Of a stretch of 32,000 bases of DNA, positions 3,619-12,249 are shown in pieces. Origin of the DNA: Candidatus Heimdallarchaeota archaeon (GTDB lineage Archaea > Asgardarchaeota > Heimdallarchaeia > Heimdallarchaeales > Heimdallarchaeaceae). Numbering within the stretch: position 1 is the first letter of the stretch; each line of letters starts with the position of its first letter. Position numbers and translations under genes: made by a program. The stretch covers positions 78,706 through 110,705 of the forward strand of contig DAOVER010000002.1 of NCBI GenBank assembly GCA_030668875.1, in the 5' to 3' direction. The notes beneath the pieces are model-generated. The model was not told the origin of the DNA. It did not search any database and saw only the letters and a list, made by a program, of their open reading frames with translations.

Positions 3619-4716
3619 ATGTTTGACCAAACATATATTCTCTTTAAGTATGTCGTAGCTGTAGCACTAATCTTGGGTGGAGTTGCTGCAACATACTGGG
3701 GAATAAAAAGACAAAATCCATTCTATAAACTATGGGTAGCTTTTCTCATATCTTATGGTATATTTGAAATAATTGAGGTATTAGAAAACCAGAATCCAAC
3801 ATCATTGATTCTTTATCGTGCCTTGCAGATTGTTCAAGCAGTTGCCTTAATTATCCTTTTTGCAGCTTGTTTAGAACAATCTATGACTATTACATCCAGA
3901 GCTAGTAGAATTCTTGCAATCAGTCTATCTACTTTGGCACTTTACTTCATAGTTATTCCGTTAGATGTATCAATAGAGAGTTTCCGAATATTAACTATAT
4001 CAATTTATGGTGTTATTTTTACAGATATTTACGGATTCATTTATGGTTCTTTAATATTAGTAAGCTCCTTCCTCTTGATAGGTGTCTATATACGATACTT
4101 CAAACTTGCATCTTCATCAAAAAGTAGACGAGTGAAGGTAAAACGGGATATAACCTTACTTCTTATTATACTTCTAATTGGATTTGCAGTTCTAGTAACT
4201 ATAAGAAGGAAGATGCTTGAAGCTAATTCTCTAGTTTTTAATATAGCAGATCTTGCATATACCTTCGTTGTTGTCTTAGTAGTTTCATTTTATCAAAGCC
4301 AATCTCTATCTCATGGTATTGAGGCGATTTTAGTTGTAGATAGAGAAGGTAACCCTCTGCTAGGTTACTCCCCTCTCCGAGGTAGAAGGATATCTTTTGA
4401 AGAAAAAATAATAGCAGCTTCAGGATATCTTGCTGGACTTTTTCACTTTGTTCGTGAATATGTTGCTACATCCTCAGAAGAGCAATTCAGAGAATTAAAA
4501 ACTAGTTCCTCTACCATGTCATTCTATGTAGGAGAAAAAATCTTCATTATAATACAAACTAAGATTTCAAGTAAAGTATTAGCTAAAGCCACAAAACTGG
4601 TTATTAAAGAGTTGGATGGCTATCTCATGGATTTCAAAGCAAATAAAATGCTAACAGAGGAGCAAATTGAACATGTACAAACACTACTAAAAGAAAATTT
4701 TACTCTCATGGCTTAA
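3619..4716 (+). CDS. 7TM membrane protein fused to a C-terminal longin-like domain
   Basis: Seven hydrophobic segments in the first ~230 aa. The last ~130 aa follow the longin b-b-a-b-b-b-a-a pattern: IEAILVVD / GNPLLGYS / AASGYLAGLFHFVREY / FRELKT / TMSFYVG / IFIIIQT / two helices. Confidence 0.7.
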   Translation: MFDQTYILFKYVVAVALILGGVAATYWGIKRQNPFYKLWVAFLISYGIFEIIEVLENQNPTSLILYRALQIVQAVALIILFAACLEQSMTITSRASRILAISLSTLALYFIVIPLDVSIESFRILTISIYGVIFTDIYGFIYGSLILVSSFLLIGVYIRYFKLASSSKSRRVKVKRDITLLLIILLIGFAVLVTIRRKMLEANSLVFNIADLAYTFVVVLVVSFYQSQSLSHGIEAILVVDREGNPLLGYSPLRGRRISFEEKIIAASGYLAGLFHFVREYVATSSEEQFRELKTSSSTMSFYVGEKIFIIIQTKISSKVLAKATKLVIKELDGYLMDFKANKMLTEEQIEHVQTLLKENFTLMA

Positions 4717-4767
4717 TCTTGCTCAACTTCACTAAAACTTATATTTTTCAAAGAATTACTATTACTA

Positions 4768-6084
4768 ATGGTTTCAATTTCATTTGTTCTAGGAACAAGA
4801 CCTGAAATAATAAAATTAGCTCCAATAATACATGAAGCTGAGAAAAGAGAGATTTCCTTTAATATAATCCATACAGGTCAACATTACGACATGGAAATGT
4901 CAGAACAATTCTTGGAATCCTTAAACATTCCTTCTCCTGATATTAATCTAGAAGTAAAATCCTTAACTCTCCATGCTCAACTGGGAAATATGGTAGAAAA
5001 GCTAGGAAACTATTATAAGAATAATAAACATGATATTGTGTTAGCTGTAGGTGATACAATAAGTGTTCTAGCAGCTGCTTTAGTTAGTAATCAAAATAAT
5101 ATCCCCTTCGGTCATATTGAAGCTGGTTTGAGATCTTATGATAATACTATGCCTGAAGAAATTAATCGCAGACTTGCAGATAGCATTGCAACACTTCATT
5201 TCGCTCCTTCTGACAGGGCTGTTTTAAACCTCCTAAATGAAGGAATTGAACCTGAAAGAGTATTCAATACAGGAAATACTATAGTAGATGCCATTCGTAT
5301 CTATTCTGCGAAATTATCTAAAAGGAAGACTTCACAGGCTGATAAGATTCTTCAAGATGTAAAAGGAGAATATTCCATTTGTACAATCCACAGAGTATCT
5401 AACGTTGAGAACAAAGAGAACTTGTTAGAAATTATCCAAGCCTTAGAATCTTTTAGAGGATATCTGAAGATCTTTTTATTACATCCTAGAACAGAAAAGA
5501 AGCTGCACGAGTATAAATTATACGATAAATTCAAACAGATCGAAGGGTTACATATATACAAGTCTGTAAATTACATGTCAATGTTGAAGCTACTAACCGA
5601 TGAAAAGTGTCAACTCATTATCACCGATTCAGGAGGTATAATTGAAGAAGCGTCGGTATTGAAAATTCCATGTATAACTATCAGACCAAATACAGAGAGA
5701 CCAGAAACAGTTGAAGGAGGGGTAAACTTTCTTGTACGACCTAAAGCTCTGGAAATTCTTCAAACTATTGAACTTATTTTGTCAGATGAAGATATAATAG
5801 AGAAAATGAAAATATTTACAAATCCATACGGTGATGGCTTTAGTAGTGGTAGGATATTGGACATTATTGAAAATAAGCTTACAAAGATGATATTTCAATC
5901 ACCGGAATCATATAAATTTGGATCAAAGTCATTTTACCTAATAGATATACAAATACCAATGAAAACAGCTTCTTTAGAAGAATTGTATGGATGTACAGTA
6001 ACTATGGTTTATGGTACGGATGGAGAGCCTTTACCAATACCAAAGAAATTAGAAAAAGGATATAGGGTTAAATTAACACTATAG
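4768..6084 (+). CDS. wecB: UDP-N-acetylglucosamine 2-epimerase (non-hydrolysing) with ~60-aa C-terminal extension
   Basis: GTRPEIIKLAP, HTGQHYD, GDT, HIEAGLRS, PEEINR, TIHR, TDSGG(I)IEEA, RPNTERPE and NPYGDG motifs. Confidence 0.95.
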   Translation: MVSISFVLGTRPEIIKLAPIIHEAEKREISFNIIHTGQHYDMEMSEQFLESLNIPSPDINLEVKSLTLHAQLGNMVEKLGNYYKNNKHDIVLAVGDTISVLAAALVSNQNNIPFGHIEAGLRSYDNTMPEEINRRLADSIATLHFAPSDRAVLNLLNEGIEPERVFNTGNTIVDAIRIYSAKLSKRKTSQADKILQDVKGEYSICTIHRVSNVENKENLLEIIQALESFRGYLKIFLLHPRTEKKLHEYKLYDKFKQIEGLHIYKSVNYMSMLKLLTDEKCQLIITDSGGIIEEASVLKIPCITIRPNTERPETVEGGVNFLVRPKALEILQTIELILSDEDIIEKMKIFTNPYGDGFSSGRILDIIENKLTKMIFQSPESYKFGSKSFYLIDIQIPMKTASLEELYGCTVTMVYGTDGEPLPIPKKLEKGYRVKLTL

Positions 6085-7074
6085 CAAGATGTCCCAGCCA
6101 TATATTCTAGCTAGTACATTTAACAAAACTCTAACTGCTGCGAAGATAGCTAAAAACCAAAAACCTGTCAGAATAGCTTCTGATTTTATCTTGTGTAAGA
6201 ATCTTGGAACTATGTTAGCAGTAATTAAAGTTCCTGCTGCCATACAGATTACTATGCCCCAGTGAATATACGATCCAAGAATTAAACGAAGTCCTAAACC
6301 AAAAGGAGTAGCAAATAGGATGGTGAATGTTGATGTAGCCGTTGCAACTGTTGCAGGAAGCCCTAATCCCATAGTCAGTATTGGTACATAGATAACCCCG
6401 CCACCTAAACCTAGGAGAGAACCGATAAATCCACCAAAGGTTGCAATTAATACTCCTGGAAGTAACTTTGCTTTGTATTCGAATTTAGTTCCTCTTTTGT
6501 CTTCTAATTTTCTAAGGAGAATAGTGTGTAACCACCATGGTTTATCCTTCTGACTTTCCGCAATTTCGATTTTATTAATTATTTTTTCTTTTACTGGAAC
6601 CCCTCGCTTTTTCTTACTCCAGCCAATAATAATTGTTGTAATTTTATATCCTGCAATTAAAAGCATTGTAACAGCAAAGATGATTTGATAAAGATCAATA
6701 TCGATACTCTGTTTCTTAATGAACAAATTTGAGAACAATGCTCCAGAAATAGCTCCTGGAATTGCAAAAATCATAAATGTTATAGCTACTCTGAAATCAA
6801 TAAGTTTTTCTCTAATATAGGAAATAGATCCACTTAAAGCTGTTATAATAATCACTCCTAAAGATGTAACTGTTGCTACATCACCAATTTTTAAATTCGG
6901 GTCACCTGTAGCAGAGACAAATTTATCTAGAAGAGCAGGAAACCCAATCAGCAGTATAGGGACGTTAAGTAAACCTCCTCCGATACCAAAAGTAGGAGAA
7001 ATTGTTCCAGATATTAATCCAGCAACGAACAAGAGAAGATAATGCCACCATTCAAATCCAGCAAATATTTCCAT
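6079..7074 (-). CDS. Sulfite exporter TauE/SafE (TSUP) family permease
   Basis: Two GIGGG/GLGGG(V)IYVP glycine-rich repeats, ATVTSL/AATSTF, about 8 TM. Probable ATG at 7074 (track start is GTG 7083). Confidence 0.9.
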   Translation of the reverse strand: MEIFAGFEWWHYLLLFVAGLISGTISPTFGIGGGLLNVPILLIGFPALLDKFVSATGDPNLKIGDVATVTSLGVIIITALSGSISYIREKLIDFRVAITFMIFAIPGAISGALFSNLFIKKQSIDIDLYQIIFAVTMLLIAGYKITTIIIGWSKKKRGVPVKEKIINKIEIAESQKDKPWWLHTILLRKLEDKRGTKFEYKAKLLPGVLIATFGGFIGSLLGLGGGVIYVPILTMGLGLPATVATATSTFTILFATPFGLGLRLILGSYIHWGIVICMAAGTLITANIVPRFLHKIKSEAILTGFWFLAIFAAVRVLLNVLARIYGWDILL

Positions 7075-7189
7075 TAGATGCACCCAATATTAACAATTGA
7101 TTAAAAAGAGTGTTACTTAAAACTTTAATGCTTAAACAAATATCTACAAGTAGAAATTATTTTAAAGTAGTTCGAAGTAGTAATCTCCT

Positions 7190-8059
7190 ATGAGTTCAGA
7201 AAAGGAAAACGCTATTGCTGAGCAGTTTCTTTCTCTAATCGATAAGAAAAATGTTTGGGAATTAGAAATACTTTCATCAATCATTAATATAAATTCTCAA
7301 AATCTAGCTGATTTCATCAAGGATCTGCCTATGGCTTTCGGATTAGCCGTTTCTGGGAAAAAAGTGCATATTACACCTGAACTTGTACGTGATGTTACGT
7401 CTGAAATTAAAGATACTTTTGTTTCCTGGTACCAGAGTACAGTACCCGGAACATACACCCAGTCTTCTTTGCTATCAAATGAGATTATCAGGGAAGATTT
7501 TGCTATGAATTTAAGATTAGAGAAAAAGGCTAAAGTTAAGATTACTATTTATGGTGATAACTTTCTCGTACAAAGAGTTGTTGACAGATACTTAACCAAA
7601 GGAAATTTACAAGTTGCATATAGTTATGAGGGGGGATATGAGCCAATAAATGCAGAAAAAACTATAGGTAATGATATTTTAGAATGTCAATTCAGTGTGA
7701 TAAATTATAGACGTGAAATATCTTCTCTTGCTAATCTTCTCTTTGAATTATCAGAGGGTTTCTTATTGGTTTTCAACCCCTTGGACAAAATGCAAGTAGT
7801 GAAATTAAACGATATGATAAATCTTCTCTCTCAGAAAAGAAGATCTGATTTATTTGTTACTTTTCTAGGTATAATCACTGAAGAAGAAGGACAAGAATCA
7901 ATCACTGAAATCGCAACAGTTCTATCAAAAATGGTTGGGAAACTTGAACATATTCATCAATTTAAAGTGTCTTTTGCAATTCTTTCAGATGAGAGACAAA
8001 TAGAGAGAAAAATAAACGACCTCTTACAAACCTCTCAACTATTGGTTAACAAAGATTGA
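7190..8059 (+). CDS. Winged-helix-like N-domain + degenerate Rab/Ras-like G-domain (pseudo-GTPase)
   Basis: aa ~115-285 align almost gap-free by eye to a Rab consensus (KITIYGD...; QFSVINYRREISSL; EGFLLVFNPLD; VTFLGIITE), but G1, G2, G3 and G4 residues are absent. aa ~8-62 show an a-b-a-a-hairpin wHTH pattern. Confidence 0.55.
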   Translation: MSSEKENAIAEQFLSLIDKKNVWELEILSSIININSQNLADFIKDLPMAFGLAVSGKKVHITPELVRDVTSEIKDTFVSWYQSTVPGTYTQSSLLSNEIIREDFAMNLRLEKKAKVKITIYGDNFLVQRVVDRYLTKGNLQVAYSYEGGYEPINAEKTIGNDILECQFSVINYRREISSLANLLFELSEGFLLVFNPLDKMQVVKLNDMINLLSQKRRSDLFVTFLGIITEEEGQESITEIATVLSKMVGKLEHIHQFKVSFAILSDERQIERKINDLLQTSQLLVNKD

Positions 8060-8061
8060 AA

Positions 8062-8754
8062 TTAACCAGGTCTCATTTCTTCATTTTCAACTAAATGTGG
8101 ATAAGCTCGAAATGCAATGTTTATTGGTATGAAACCTATACTTAGAAGTATTATTGCTACAGCTGTTATTCCTATCCCAATAATGTTTATTATTACTGCT
8201 ACTGCTTCGTTTGAAATTAACCAGCTTATGAAGAATAATGTAAAGGATAGAGACTGAACTCCAAACCCTATCGATAGGAAATGTTTTGGATACTTTACAA
8301 TGACTCTTTTAAGGTAAAGAGATGCCAACTGTTTCTGAAGGAAGAAAAATCCAATAGTATACGCAATACTGGATAATATAAGACATATTCCGCCAAGATA
8401 GATGAGAATGTCAGTGACTATCCACTCTATTAGGATTAATAGAAACAATCCGAGTAGTAATATCCCAGAACCAACAAAAATGAATATAGCAATCTGTTTT
8501 CCACGCTCCCATGCAAATTCGCTTTCATTCCTAAAATTCAGTGCAGCTTTTCCTATTCCAGCTAAGCCAATAATAATCGGTGCGTATAATATTTGTGAAG
8601 CATCCAATCCGTAAAGTACATCAAAAAGACCATTAGCGATAATGTATCCTCCTGACATAAAGTATAATAAAATACCTAATATTACGTAGAAGAAAACAAC
8701 TAGTATGCTCCCACTAGCAAAAAATTTCGAATTTCTATGAAGACTCATTATCAC
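8062..8754 (-). CDS. 6TM hypothetical membrane protein (paralog 3 of tandem triplet)
   Basis: Six hydrophobic segments; FLSIGF and LSIGFIPI resemble motifs in the two upstream genes; start overlaps the upstream stop. Confidence 0.8.
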   Translation of the reverse strand: MIMSLHRNSKFFASGSILVVFFYVILGILLYFMSGGYIIANGLFDVLYGLDASQILYAPIIIGLAGIGKAALNFRNESEFAWERGKQIAIFIFVGSGILLLGLFLLILIEWIVTDILIYLGGICLILSSIAYTIGFFFLQKQLASLYLKRVIVKYPKHFLSIGFGVQSLSFTLFFISWLISNEAVAVIINIIGIGITAVAIILLSIGFIPINIAFRAYPHLVENEEMRPG

Positions 8755-9473
8755 ACCTCTTCCTTATCTTTCTTCTCAACCAAAGTTTTTTCTTCTTCTT
8801 CCAATTCAAGAGATTTATCCTGTCGTTGAATATCTTTCCTCCTTAGTAAGTTTAGTGTGCTTGCTAATTGGAAAAGACCAAGAATTATCATAAATTGAGC
8901 GAATAGGATTAAAGCGAGTATGGTGAATGCTAACCAACTAGGTAATTGTAATTGTTGAGGATAAATATACTCACTATACCAAGACAATACACTTGGAAAG
9001 AATAGAACTAAAAATCCTATGGGAAGAAGAAACTCAGATTTTCTGTTAATATCATTTTTATCTAGCAAGTCATCAAAGAAGAATTTATTTAATGTAAATG
9101 ATGCTACTAATGTTACATAAAAAACAATAATTAAAGCTAGCCTTACGAAGATGACAGGAGAAGAATTCCATATCTCTTCTGTACCAAGAATGTAATAAAG
9201 AATTGTTATGCATATGTCAGATATTGCACTAACTAAAAACATTATACTAATAAGTAACCAAAATTTGAGCTCTCGATTTTCTCTTCCTGCTCGTATGATC
9301 CCTATTACAAATAGTAGAATCACACAATCAAAAGCTACTGATAGAATCAATGGTAAATTTGGATATGAAACTGCAAGCGGAGTTGTATTGCTTATTGTAA
9401 TTATAGTTTGAATCAAAACCATAGTCCAAGTAGCGTAGAAAAGATGTTTTGCAATATCCTTGGACGTATCCAT
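8751..9473 (-). CDS. 6TM hypothetical membrane protein (paralog 2)
   Basis: Probable ATG at 9473 (MDTSKDIAK), 4 nt after the upstream stop; the track start at 9539 overlaps the upstream gene. Six TM; LLPIGF motif; charged tail. Confidence 0.8.
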   Translation of the reverse strand: MDTSKDIAKHLFYATWTMVLIQTIITISNTTPLAVSYPNLPLILSVAFDCVILLFVIGIIRAGRENRELKFWLLISIMFLVSAISDICITILYYILGTEEIWNSSPVIFVRLALIIVFYVTLVASFTLNKFFFDDLLDKNDINRKSEFLLPIGFLVLFFPSVLSWYSEYIYPQQLQLPSWLAFTILALILFAQFMIILGLFQLASTLNLLRRKDIQRQDKSLELEEEEKTLVEKKDKEEV

Positions 9474-9477
9474 TTTT

Positions 9478-10485
9478 TCACCTAGTGATGTAAGGGTTTG
9501 TTTCACCACAATTTGAACAAAATACTGCATCATGTTCAAGTTCTAGACCACATTTGACACAGAACATTTTTTTGCCTTTTAATTCTTCAGGAGGAATTAT
9601 TGTGGACTTGTAATCAATTTCGTCTTCTTTTCTTTGTGAGGGAGCAATGGGTCTTTGTCTACTCAAACCTAGCATTGTCTGTGCAGGTTTCTGAGTTCTT
9701 TGAGCCCTTTGTTGAGTCATTGCAGCCTTCCGGGCTTCTTGTTTTTCAAAGAATCCTTCTGGAAGCTTATCTAGAATGCCATAAGCTCGTCGTAAATACC
9801 AAAAACCCATAATAACCATAACAACAGCTGCAATACCCATGAAATATGCTGTATTCACGAATGCTTCAGATCCTTCATTAGGAACTCTCCTTCCATTAAC
9901 ATCAATGTGTGTTACCGAATCTAAAGGTACTACCATGTACATAACAAACCTCACTAATAGCAATGCATATCCAATTGGGAGGGATAATTGACCTTTGAAG
10001 ATATTTCTCTTTTCCTGTCTAAATCCATCTAAAACCATTTTCATAAATATAAAACCAGCTAGCAAAGAAACATATGAAACAATAGTCAATATGTCGCTAG
10101 TAAGTTCATTGGAATCTGATGTGAGAATTATATTAGTTACAGTTAGACCATCAATTATATGTCCTGGTAAACTGATTAATCCGCCTATGAATACTAGAAT
10201 TGAAGAAAACAACAAATAGATGTTTTTCTCCTCTCTATAGAAGAGAAAGAAACCAACCGCTAACCCTATAATAACTATGTTAGAAACGATATATAATGCA
10301 ACTGAATATAGGCTTATGTCCGCATCTGTATTAAAGAACATTTCAATACCTTTTGCAATCACGATGATCAGTGTAGTCCAAGTTATTATCTTTCTTGTTC
10401 TATTAGAAATTTTTTTCTCGGATTGAACAACTTCTGCAACTGCGATATCTTCACCAGTAAATTGTAGTTTAATTTCTTTTGACAT
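9478..10485 (-). CDS. 6TM membrane protein with C-terminal double zinc ribbon (paralog 1)
   Basis: Six TM, LSLPIGY motif, Q/R-rich linker, C-terminal FCVKCG...FCSNCG. Confidence 0.85.
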   Translation of the reverse strand: MSKEIKLQFTGEDIAVAEVVQSEKKISNRTRKIITWTTLIIVIAKGIEMFFNTDADISLYSVALYIVSNIVIIGLAVGFFLFYREEKNIYLLFSSILVFIGGLISLPGHIIDGLTVTNIILTSDSNELTSDILTIVSYVSLLAGFIFMKMVLDGFRQEKRNIFKGQLSLPIGYALLLVRFVMYMVVPLDSVTHIDVNGRRVPNEGSEAFVNTAYFMGIAAVVMVIMGFWYLRRAYGILDKLPEGFFEKQEARKAAMTQQRAQRTQKPAQTMLGLSRQRPIAPSQRKEDEIDYKSTIIPPEELKGKKMFCVKCGLELEHDAVFCSNCGETNPYITR

Positions 10486-10583
10486 CTAAATTTATCTTGA
10501 CTGCCTAATATTTAAATATGCACAATTATGAGCAATTTCAAAGGTATTATTGTGTTTTTGTATAGTATGAATGAAAACAAAAG

Positions 10584-10599
10584 AGGTAAAGTATATAAG
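10584..10599 (+). promoter_or_regulatory. BRE/TATA-like promoter of the 10623 gene
   Basis: Purine-rich AGGTAAAG followed by TATATAAG (10592-10599), ending 23 nt before the ATG at 10623; spacing fits a leaderless archaeal transcript. Confidence 0.45.
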
Positions 10600-10622
10600 T
10601 ACGTTTTGTCTCTTTTTTTTTG

Positions 10623-11147
10623 ATGAGATTATCTTCCTCTTTGTCGCTGCTAGTTTTTACCTTAGCTTTTTTAAGCGTTCTAACTCCTGCCATGTATGAT
10701 TCTGAGGGATTTGCTCTTAACTGGATTGACATCCATGAATCTCCTGTTCTGTGGATTCTACTTGCAGCAACAATGCTCGTAGGATTACATGATGTTGAAT
10801 TACTTTATGGAATAAAGTTTCTGAGAAGCTCAAATAGTAGAATATTACGTATTTTACTCATTGCAGTAGCTGTAGGTATGTCGTACGCTATGGAATTATC
10901 TGTAAATTACCATTTATCAGGACTTACCTTCTGGACTGGAAGTATCATCTTTCGTTTCCCTGCTAATGCTTCTATACACGATGGTATTGGGATAGGTTAT
11001 CATTTGGTTCGTTTGTGCCGTATCATATTGCTCTTTGGCCTTCTCGAAGCTCTTATTGAGAAAGATCCTAAGAAAGGTAGTATCCATATTGAAAAATTAT
11101 ATGAAGATTCCTTCACAAAGGATAAGAAGAAGGAAAACAGTTTTTAA
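10623..11147 (+). CDS. Hypothetical membrane protein (~4 TM)
   Basis: 174-aa ORF with hydrophobic segments and a charged C-terminus; TATA-like box at the expected distance. Confidence 0.65.
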   Translation: MRLSSSLSLLVFTLAFLSVLTPAMYDSEGFALNWIDIHESPVLWILLAATMLVGLHDVELLYGIKFLRSSNSRILRILLIAVAVGMSYAMELSVNYHLSGLTFWTGSIIFRFPANASIHDGIGIGYHLVRLCRIILLFGLLEALIEKDPKKGSIHIEKLYEDSFTKDKKKENSF

Positions 11148-11190
11148 TTGAAGTTGACCTTACTTCAATATAAAACCCCATTTGATTGTG

Positions 11191-12249
11191 ATGACAGATA
11201 CAATATTTATTCCCTATGTCTCATTGCTAGTCTTAGATGAGATGGGGATGACTTTAAGAAGTTCTATATCCAACCCAGATATCTCAAGAGAAGAAATAAT
11301 GGGGATGGGAAATTTCTACAGTCCAGTTATATCTGCTTCATCACCCAATCTAGAGATTTATGGACCATTACCCATTCCACATTTTGGGAAATATCATCTA
11401 CTTATTGTGTCTTTTCGCAAAGCTGATTCTGAAAATAGAGTAATGAGATCAAAGGCTACAGACAATTTGTCATTCTGTCAATTACTAATTATCTATGACA
11501 AAAAATGCGACCAGAAAGTAAAATTTGGTCATAGCAAAATCTATGATACCGTTGAATCTTTCTTACAGCAATTTACAGACATCAAACAAATAACTGATAA
11601 TAGTTTGATTTTTCTAAGTGAGTCGCTTATTGAAAACATCTTGCTAGATGAACAGATAAAGTCAAAGAGTTTAGAGGATGTTGTACGTGACATAGCTTCT
11701 CGTTTTAATACAATTCAACAAATTTCTAACCTTCTTAATCGAAGAACCAAAATAGGGATTATTACTTCTGACTCGCTTTCTTATAACCTAATAATTCAGT
11801 CCCTTTTCCATTATCAGAATATAGATTTTATCTATGAATTTAGTAGAAATGAGTTTATTAGCAGAATTGATACATATTTTATGAGAATAGTGTTGACACT
11901 TCTATTTGACTTAGAAACGATTGCTGGAAAAGAGTATTTTAGAGAGATGGACTATTATATCTATTTAGCTTCATGTGAGGATATAACATCAGCTACTAGA
12001 CATATAAGAAATATTGATGAATTGAAAAAACGTGATCCTAAATCAAAAATCTTCTTAGTTACCTTTGAGAAAGCAGAGCAAATAGATTTAAACGTTAAAA
12101 AGGCTCTTTTTGCTGAATCAGAACGTAGGAAGAATGTTCAACTAATGATAACGGTTGGAGATTTGTTTAGAACTTTAGACAATGCGGTGTATTTGATACT
12201 TAACGATGTATTAGAGTTAAGAAATATTCTTCTTTCAACAAATATTTGA
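11191..12249 (+). CDS. uDENN/longin-like N-domain + degenerate Rag-like G-domain
   Basis: N-domain has LLVLDEMG, IYGPLPIP, YHLLIVSF and LLIIY. C-domain has KIGII, EYFREMDYYIYLAS and LKKRDPKSKIFLVTFEKAE, resembling Rag/Gtr1 (LRKYSPDAKIFVLLHKMD) but without GKS/T or DxxG. Probable ATG at 11191 (track start is TTG 11182). Confidence 0.5.
   Translation: MTDTIFIPYVSLLVLDEMGMTLRSSISNPDISREEIMGMGNFYSPVISASSPNLEIYGPLPIPHFGKYHLLIVSFRKADSENRVMRSKATDNLSFCQLLIIYDKKCDQKVKFGHSKIYDTVESFLQQFTDIKQITDNSLIFLSESLIENILLDEQIKSKSLEDVVRDIASRFNTIQQISNLLNRRTKIGIITSDSLSYNLIIQSLFHYQNIDFIYEFSRNEFISRIDTYFMRIVLTLLFDLETIAGKEYFREMDYYIYLASCEDITSATRHIRNIDELKKRDPKSKIFLVTFEKAEQIDLNVKKALFAESERRKNVQLMITVGDLFRTLDNAVYLILNDVLELRNILLSTNI

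Follow-up and report, generated by a model that had tools for sequence, protein, structure and literature searches.

The locus and its gene product

A stretch of 32,000 nucleotides from Candidatus Heimdallarchaeota archaeon (contig DAOVER010000002.1, positions 78,706 to 110,705), called here the window, was analysed around one of its genes, at positions 7190 to 8059, which together with its product is referred to below as the target. The window is AT-rich, with a GC content of about 33%, and its nearest protein relatives carry the source names Candidatus Heimdallarchaeota or Heimdallarchaeaceae. A search of sequencing runs with the stretch listed DNA runs only, with no RNA run among the holders; these DNA runs are marine-sediment metagenomes, which indicates a possible source. 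An earlier note, written from the sequence without database searches, had described the product as an N-terminal winged helix-turn-helix (wHTH) joined to a Rab-like pseudoGTPase in which every G motif is erased. Our analysis makes it likely that the protein is soluble and composed of two domains, an acidic winged helix and, beyond a floppy linker, a Ras-superfamily G-domain devoid of the five guanine-nucleotide motifs. The gene is laid out as follows.

7190..8059, + strand: the whole target gene, encoding a winged-helix and Ras-fold pseudoGTPase of 289 amino acids (aa), with the stop codon at 8057-8059 (open reading frame (ORF) list and translation)
7190..7444, + strand: N-terminal winged-helix domain with its trailing helix, aa 1-85, acidic
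7445..7525, + strand: disordered linker, aa 86-112 (predicted local distance difference test score, pLDDT, below 50; median ratio of nonsynonymous to synonymous substitution rates, dN/dS, 0.93)
7526..8056, + strand: G-domain fold of the Ras superfamily, lacking the G motifs, aa 113-289 (structure searches, PDB profile and alignment to canonical GTPases)

The AlphaFold2 (AF2) model, computed with 18 orthologues, shows two domains connected by a segment whose pLDDT stays below 50; its mean pLDDT is 78, and about 90 across aa 190-280. Family models do not register the target as a GTPase. When it was compared with Pfam, the Ras, Arf and Roc models gave no match even at E 10, the sole match being a sub-threshold one to DDRGK at aa 2-74, and a comparison with NCBIfam gave zero matches. 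A match above the curated threshold to a hidden Markov model (HMM) of the Ras or Arf family (PF00071/PF00025) is likewise absent.

The C-terminal domain is predicted to have a Ras-superfamily fold

In the AF2 model, the C-terminal domain runs in the order b1-a1-b2-b3-a2-b4-a3-b5-a4-b6-a5, with the six-stranded sheet and the antiparallel b2-b3 hairpin that characterize the Ras-superfamily fold. Three structure searches were performed on this domain, and all agree on that fold. The best 50 Foldseek matches in the PDB are Ras-superfamily proteins only, mostly Rabs (E 9e-8 to 2e-6; target template modelling score of at most 0.74), and a shape search of the ESM-Atlas returned Arf, Ras and Roc clusters only. 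A sequence profile of the C-terminal domain alone found Ypt51 as its best match in the PDB (E 4.5e-3), and small GTPases form the majority of the best 60, a result beyond chance expectation. The earlier note had named a receiver or flavodoxin domain as the kind of result that would speak against it; the best structural matches are Ras-superfamily GTPases and neither of these.

The label Rab-like fared less well. Its Ras-superfamily part stands, but Rab in particular is not singled out, as Ras, Rab and Rag score equally; the name Ras-superfamily is therefore warranted and Rab-like is not specifically so. A C-terminal cysteine prenylation motif of the Rab type is also missing from the target, whose sole cysteine is C166 and whose sequence ends in ...LLVNKD. 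However, since the C-terminal tail is likewise absent from Asgard Rab-like proteins (PMC10933270), the missing cysteine is of limited weight.

All G motifs are replaced throughout the family

The target family was aligned with MAFFT to eight canonical small GTPases, seven from the same genome and one from a sister genus, and to seven paralogues. The alignment is nearly gapless and fits the secondary structure of the model, and its register was confirmed by separate profile alignments to Ypt51 (G3 to beta5), to the paralogue family described below (beta4 and G4) and to an Arf-like GTPase (G1). The former motifs were located at these positions.

7553..7576, + strand: former G1/P-loop (G-x4-GK[ST]), now GDNFLVQR, aa 122-129 (MAFFT and profile alignments)
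7631..7645, + strand: GGYEP motif at the switch I/beta2 junction (Thr region), within EGGYEP, aa 147-152 (MAFFT and conservation)
7700..7717, + strand: former G3 (DxxGQ), now INYRRE, aa 171-176, with Arg175 in place of the DxxG Gly (MAFFT and Ypt51 profile)
aa 194-199: beta4, VFNPLD (MAFFT and paralogue profile)
7871..7882, + strand: former G4 ([NT]KxD), now IITE, aa 228-231, in LGIITEE, aa 226-232 (hhalign and MAFFT)
7967..7987, + strand: beta6 and former G5 (SAK), within VSFAILS, aa 260-266 (MAFFT)

In GDNFLVQR the first Gly of the P-loop is retained, whereas the second is replaced by Val, the Lys by Gln and the Ser/Thr by Arg; at G4, hhalign to the paralogue pairs LGIITEE with LGNKIDL. All six strings (GDNFLVQR, EGGYEP, INYRRE, VFNPLD, LGIITEE and VSFAILS) lie where the by-eye alignment of the earlier note had put them, so that this alignment was essentially right, and its claim that every G motif is replaced with the spacing of the fold retained is borne out by the nearly gapless alignment, the independent profiles and the structural matches.

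The replacements are not peculiar to this copy. GK[ST], DxxG and NKxD occur in none of the 18 aligned orthologues, nor in more distant members of 23-38% identity, so that orthologues with intact G motifs, which the note had named as a refuting result, were not encountered. Since the replacements are common to every orthologue found, the target is not one decayed copy. The Gly-6 position of the P-loop is V, L or I across all members. A predicted GTPase fold with G motifs absent across orthologues, as observed here, is one of the marks of a class i pseudoGTPase.

The residues that took the place of the motifs are themselves conserved. G122, N124, G148, G149, E151, R175, V260, S261 and F262 are invariant in the 18 close orthologues, and the most distant forms still keep K117, G122, GG(Y)xP, Q167 and V260. 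GGYEP is the most conserved feature of the family, with G148 and G149 invariant and Y150 and P152 nearly so, also in stand-alone forms that are 24% identical. Some distant members carry Lys or Arg at the Walker-Lys position (GKNNLVKS, GVNSLVKR), which in the alignment looks like a P-loop fossil.

Substitutes that are invariant or nearly so (G122, N124, GGYEP, R175 and V260-S261-F262) are non-random and are what a re-purposed pocket would look like. Together with the Lys or Arg of the distant members, they favour an explanation in which the remodelled pocket still binds a small ligand, either a nucleotide in a non-canonical manner or another metabolite, and the protein would be a sensor and not a passive scaffold. 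We consider this rather improbable: the second Gly of the P-loop is Val, Leu or Ile throughout the family, the Mg-binding Ser/Thr and the base-specifying Asp of NKxD are lost, no ligand-binding family is matched in Pfam or NCBIfam, and most of the P-loop is helical in the model. There, helix a1 begins at aa 124, two residues past the end of b1 and not after a longer loop; judged from the secondary-structure boundaries alone, the pocket may be filled.

The N-terminal winged helix and the shared intergenic region

Folded alone from 24 sequences, the N-terminal domain reaches a pLDDT of 87 and shows the order H-S-H-H-S-S followed by a long trailing helix; all 50 of its listed VIA matches are winged helices. 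The top VIA scores belong to protein-binding PCI/DDRGK1 types (Rpn12 6.7, CSN 6.0, and DDRGK1 5.9 at 21% identity), with MarR-, IscR- and IclR-type regulators close behind. Foldseek found no match for the N-terminal domain alone at E <= 0.001, and a profile search favours the MCM8 winged helix (E 0.012) and HTH regulators, at similarly weak E-values. Membership of the DDRGK family was rejected, with a score of 21.8 bits for a cut-off of 27.8 and sub-threshold matches in two of 24 members. Unlike the winged helices of Rpn12, the CSN subunits and DDRGK1, that of the target is not preceded by a helical repeat: no PCI helical-repeat region lies ahead of it, and as it starts at residue 3 there is no room for one. 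A single winged helix is modelled, and ESCRT-II chains are absent among the 50 listed VIA or Foldseek rows, although a relationship may still exist. Of the PCI/ESCRT-II-like wHTH that had been described for this domain, the winged helix is upheld by the model and the VIA matches, whereas the likeness to PCI and ESCRT-II is at most a hint.

The same winged-helix module, with a consensus around ...FGF.I.GD.L.F....I.DFID.L...F.EW, forms the extreme C-terminus of a leucine-rich repeat (LRR) protein and of proteins of the membrane and coiled-coil kinds (200-450 aa) in other Asgard families (loci L049, L050, L051, L052, L053, L054 and L055), which suggests that it is a mobile Asgard interaction domain. 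In the target family, aa 1-85 have a net charge of -2 to -9 at all 23 loci examined, and the recognition-helix segment carries no basic cluster, so that the basic surface of a DNA-binding wHTH is not seen. An acidic N-terminal domain in every orthologue argues against DNA binding. In genus g5, represented by two single-contig genomes, the Ras-like domain is found alone as a protein of 188 aa; the 67 bp that separate it from the next gene leave too little space for a winged helix, and no winged-helix match was detected anywhere in the two genomes. The winged helix is dispensable in this one genus.

The target is transcribed away from a permease gene, with which it shares an upstream region.

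6079..7083, - strand: TauE/SafE-family permease gene (Pfam PF01925, E 5e-35), head-to-head with the target in g1, g2 and g5
7084..7189, no strand: divergent intergenic region of 106 bp shared with the TauE gene (upstream alignment of 21 orthologous loci)
7117-7130 and 7159-7167: A/T-rich genus-conserved elements TTAAAACTTTAATG and ATTTTAAAG (upstream alignment)

The two elements probably serve the divergent genes as TATA/BRE boxes. A one-component transcription regulator, in which the winged helix would bind this shared region and control TauE, with the Ras-like domain used for sensing or oligomerisation, appears very unlikely on several grounds: all orthologues have an acidic winged helix, the TauE-adjacent gene of g5 lacks it altogether, the intergenic elements resemble two A/T-rich promoter boxes rather than an operator palindrome, other Asgard lineages carry the same module at the end of LRR, membrane and coiled-coil proteins, and its best-scoring structural match is of the protein-binding PCI type.

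The family is retained under purifying selection

A profile search found the family in 28 of the 29 Heimdallarchaeaceae genomes, with intact frames, but not in any of the 370 other Asgard genomes searched; only 12 matches were obtained in 1.8 billion cluster representatives. The target is single-copy in its own genome, and its orthologues are 38-88% identical to it. From codon alignments of 21 distinct orthologous genes, the median dN/dS is 0.15 for the whole gene, 0.16 for the G-like domain, 0.22 for the winged helix and 0.93 for the linker. Both domains are under strong purifying selection and the linker is neutral. By these measures (median dN/dS of 0.15; intact ORFs in 28 of 29 genomes) the target is a retained functional protein and not a pseudogene. 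That it might be a functionless duplicate of an Asgard small GTPase, decaying or drifting fast, as the many Ras-superfamily paralogues per Asgard genome (18 matches listed in this genome, among which is the winged helix of the target itself) and the very long family stem of 3.6 substitutions per site could suggest, is highly implausible given the frames kept intact, a relaxed dN/dS signal confined to the linker and family-specific invariant motifs that hold across genera at 24% identity.

A motif-bearing paralogue family in the same genomes

The same genomes encode a paralogous family of winged-helix and Ras proteins of about 301 aa, whose copy in the target's own genome is P0037 (L025:1498-2400, + strand; G000:C89). 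The winged helices of target and paralogue are homologous, with 33% identity (E 5e-8; hhalign 95.6%, E 1.3e-8), and the two proteins share the domain order and have similar lengths (289 and 301 aa). They differ in the G-domain: the paralogue lies above the Pfam Ras threshold, with GxxxxGK and NKxD, whereas the target matches no GTPase model. P0037 itself matches Pfam Ras at E 7e-10, and Ras, Arf and Roc are also among the precomputed annotations. The paralogue family keeps an invariant but atypical P-loop (G-x4-GK-[Q/K/H]-S), [NT]KxD and an S-x-T G5, and is without DxxG; its source names are 'ADP-ribosylation factor-like' or 'GTPase SAR1 family', from Heimdallarchaeaceae sources only. The winged-helix and small-GTPase architecture thus exists side by side in motif-bearing and motif-less forms. 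The paralogues also have an invariant PAPGV where the switch I Thr would be, and the gene of P0037 is flanked by those of a DUF1998-type helicase and of a large glycosyltransferase-like membrane protein.

In the tree, where stems are long, the sister of the target family is not resolved. Descent from the Arf-like GTPase that stands beside the homologue of a neighbouring 355-aa protein in g3 and g4 was considered as well and is unsupported, with an hhalign E of 0.15 that covers the P-loop strand only.

A conserved cluster of membrane proteins

Further genes around the target belong to a cluster that extends from 3619 to 12249.

3619-4716, + strand: 365-aa seven-transmembrane (7TM) protein, predicted to cross the membrane about seven times, with some 130 aa of soluble tail
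8062-10485, - strand: three tandem overlapping genes for paralogous multi-pass membrane proteins (230, 262 and 335 aa)
11182..12249, + strand: 355-aa protein of the conserved cluster

In g1 and g2, the cluster comprises the 7TM protein, TauE, the target, the three membrane paralogues, a 175-aa membrane protein and the 355-aa protein, and it is kept across three genera at protein identities of 24-60%. In g5, TauE and the target have been inverted together and now adjoin the 355-aa gene. At the syntenic locus of g4, the 7TM protein, TauE and the three membrane paralogues are present, and exactly the target, the 175-aa and the 355-aa genes are missing together.

The last of the three membrane paralogues ends in a zinc ribbon (Pfam Zn_Ribbon_1, E 2e-5), and all three are kept in every genus examined, including one that has no pseudoGTPase. 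The 7TM protein is conserved beside the cluster in all five genera. By language-model features its tail is nearest to the Asgard clusters of roadblock/LAMTOR2, Fuz-longin and adaptor-protein (AP) small-chain types (0.84); a longin reading of this tail is a lead only. Two similar 7TM-plus-tail genes are found near an Arf-like GTPase at another locus (L042, 2956-4068 and 4254-5330). The two halves of the TauE permease are separated by some 55 aa of cytoplasmic insert, in which an R...DKR..F.Y..KL.PG segment is invariant in the four genera compared.

The 355-aa neighbour

The 355-aa family has no match in Pfam. Its N-domain is marked by the motif N-x-Y-S ... [YF]GPLP[IVA]P and was found, besides the window (11182-12249, +), at L040:2516-3568 (-), L042:1-699 (-) and L062:1984-3300 (+). 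At three other loci, in g4, in g3 and elsewhere in the target's own genome, this N-domain adjoins genuine Arf-like GTPases. The g4 gene lies 2 bp from its GTPase (Pfam Arf E 2e-25), and its product and the 355-aa protein of the window are reciprocal best matches; in the own genome, at L062, the N-domain is part of a PAS-domain protein between two Arf-like GTPases. It may be an uncharacterised GTPase-associated module, possibly roadblock- or longin-like. The L062 locus (G000:C18:13500-18000) holds Arf-family GTPases of 302 and 314 aa (Pfam Arf E ~1e-32), each with a C-terminal extension of about 130 aa, on a contig with at least four GTPase-like ORFs.

By its language-model features in the Atlas, the 355-aa protein comes closest to Arf/Ras/Gtr1-type proteins of Asgard archaea that are about 347 aa long (0.90). 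When a complex of the target and this protein was predicted, the score was 0.00 without controls, which speaks neither for nor against binding.

Proposed function

As far as sequence and predicted structure reach, the description of the target as an archaeal winged-helix and pseudoGTPase protein is supported. We infer that it is a class i pseudoGTPase, for which nucleotide binding is not expected. The Ras-like domain would then no longer cycle, and would act as a permanently 'set' protein-binding module through the conserved former switch face, with the winged helix as a second, accessory protein-binding handle. Candidate partners would be the membrane-associated and GTPase-associated neighbours; the conserved neighbourhood, with TauE, the multi-pass membrane proteins and the 355-aa protein, suggests that partners are membrane-associated. 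The 355-aa protein is the leading candidate, although a partnership with it is less likely than not and the weakest step of this interpretation. A bolder extension, which we offer as speculative and unlikely in its full form, is that the cluster at 3619-12249 is an Asgard membrane module built around non-cycling GTPase-fold proteins. The pseudoGTPase would be its permanently 'on-shaped' subunit, docking on the 355-aa protein at its roadblock/longin-type N-domain, on the 7TM protein at its cytoplasmic domain, or on both; in three genera it would have taken the place of an ancestral GTPase able to switch, and the pairing would be an archaeal counterpart of Rag-Ragulator or of AAGAB-sigma.

Several observations weigh against a non-cycling binding module with partners in this cluster. 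The class assignment, with its loss of nucleotide binding, is a prediction drawn from sequence and from an AF2 model. The target is monocistronic, divergent from the TauE gene and convergent with the membrane-protein run at 8062-10485, and therefore gives no operon evidence. Synteny in Heimdallarchaeaceae reaches beyond the cluster, so that a shared neighbourhood says little about linkage. The genus that has no target likewise conserves the cytoplasmic loop of TauE, and co-variation of this loop with the presence of the target was consequently not seen. A GTPase-like C-half of the 355-aa protein is a lead only, and profile comparisons of its family came out empty with the C-terminal domain of the target (E 0.086), with the paralogue family (E 0.82) and with PDB sequences. 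Finally, descent of the target's G-domain from the motif-bearing paralogue is unsupported (hhalign E 0.043, with the tree unresolved). As the two G-domains are not specifically related, a duplication from the paralogue is not established, and the winged helix could have been shuffled.

Comparison with known systems

PseudoGTPases have been described from eukaryotes and bacteria. A close parallel to the binding module proposed here is AAGAB, whose N-terminal domain, like the target, has a small-GTPase fold without G motifs and serves as a constitutive protein-binding domain; this class i pseudoGTPase domain binds longin-fold sigma adaptins (PMC12490416). The partner of AAGAB is thus of the longin type, whereas longin or roadblock domains are only suspected in two neighbours of the target's cluster. 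AAGAB is a eukaryotic protein that lacks a winged helix and shows no detectable sequence relationship to the target family. It also binds through the face opposite the switches, in contrast to the target, whose most conserved patch is on the former switch I/pocket side. The pG1 and pG2 domains of p190RhoGAP, and CENP-M, are likewise Ras-like folds without nucleotide-binding residues, kept for a structural or scaffolding role within larger assemblies (PMC5593906); however, they are eukaryotic, belong to a multi-domain RhoGAP and to a kinetochore complex, and have only the superfamily fold in common with the target. LokiRagO (8YL2), HodArfR1 (8OUL) and eukaryotic Rab, Ras and Rag proteins, with 10-16% identity, bind GTP/GDP by canonical motifs, unlike the target.

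Asgard archaea serve the study of how GTPase-driven membrane traffic arose in eukaryotes. Their Ras superfamily is surveyed by means of G motifs or family HMMs, which the target family evades. In the literature, no paper was found that pairs pseudoGTPases with Asgard archaea or reports an archaeal example, and no winged-helix and small-GTPase architecture was found described for Heimdallarchaeota; two papers on Asgard GTPases do not mention such proteins. The target family is a candidate for the first archaeal pseudoGTPase. The expectation that motif-based surveys would miss it agrees with the blank Pfam and NCBIfam results, but has to be tempered, as hundreds of GTPase-fold proteins are already grouped together in structure-based Asgard surveys (PMC12962969). 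Given the many Ras-superfamily paralogues of this lineage, degenerate members come as no surprise.

The reach of the finding is that of one Asgard family, with no visible ancestry to any eukaryotic pseudoGTPase. Within it, to judge from sequence and model, scaffold-type G-domains that do not cycle would also have evolved on the archaeal side. A natural comparison set comes with the family in the same genomes: a paralogue that bears motifs next to the same winged helix, and a stand-alone form without it. The family points, moreover, to conserved uncharacterised membrane proteins and GTPase-associated proteins as its candidate partners.

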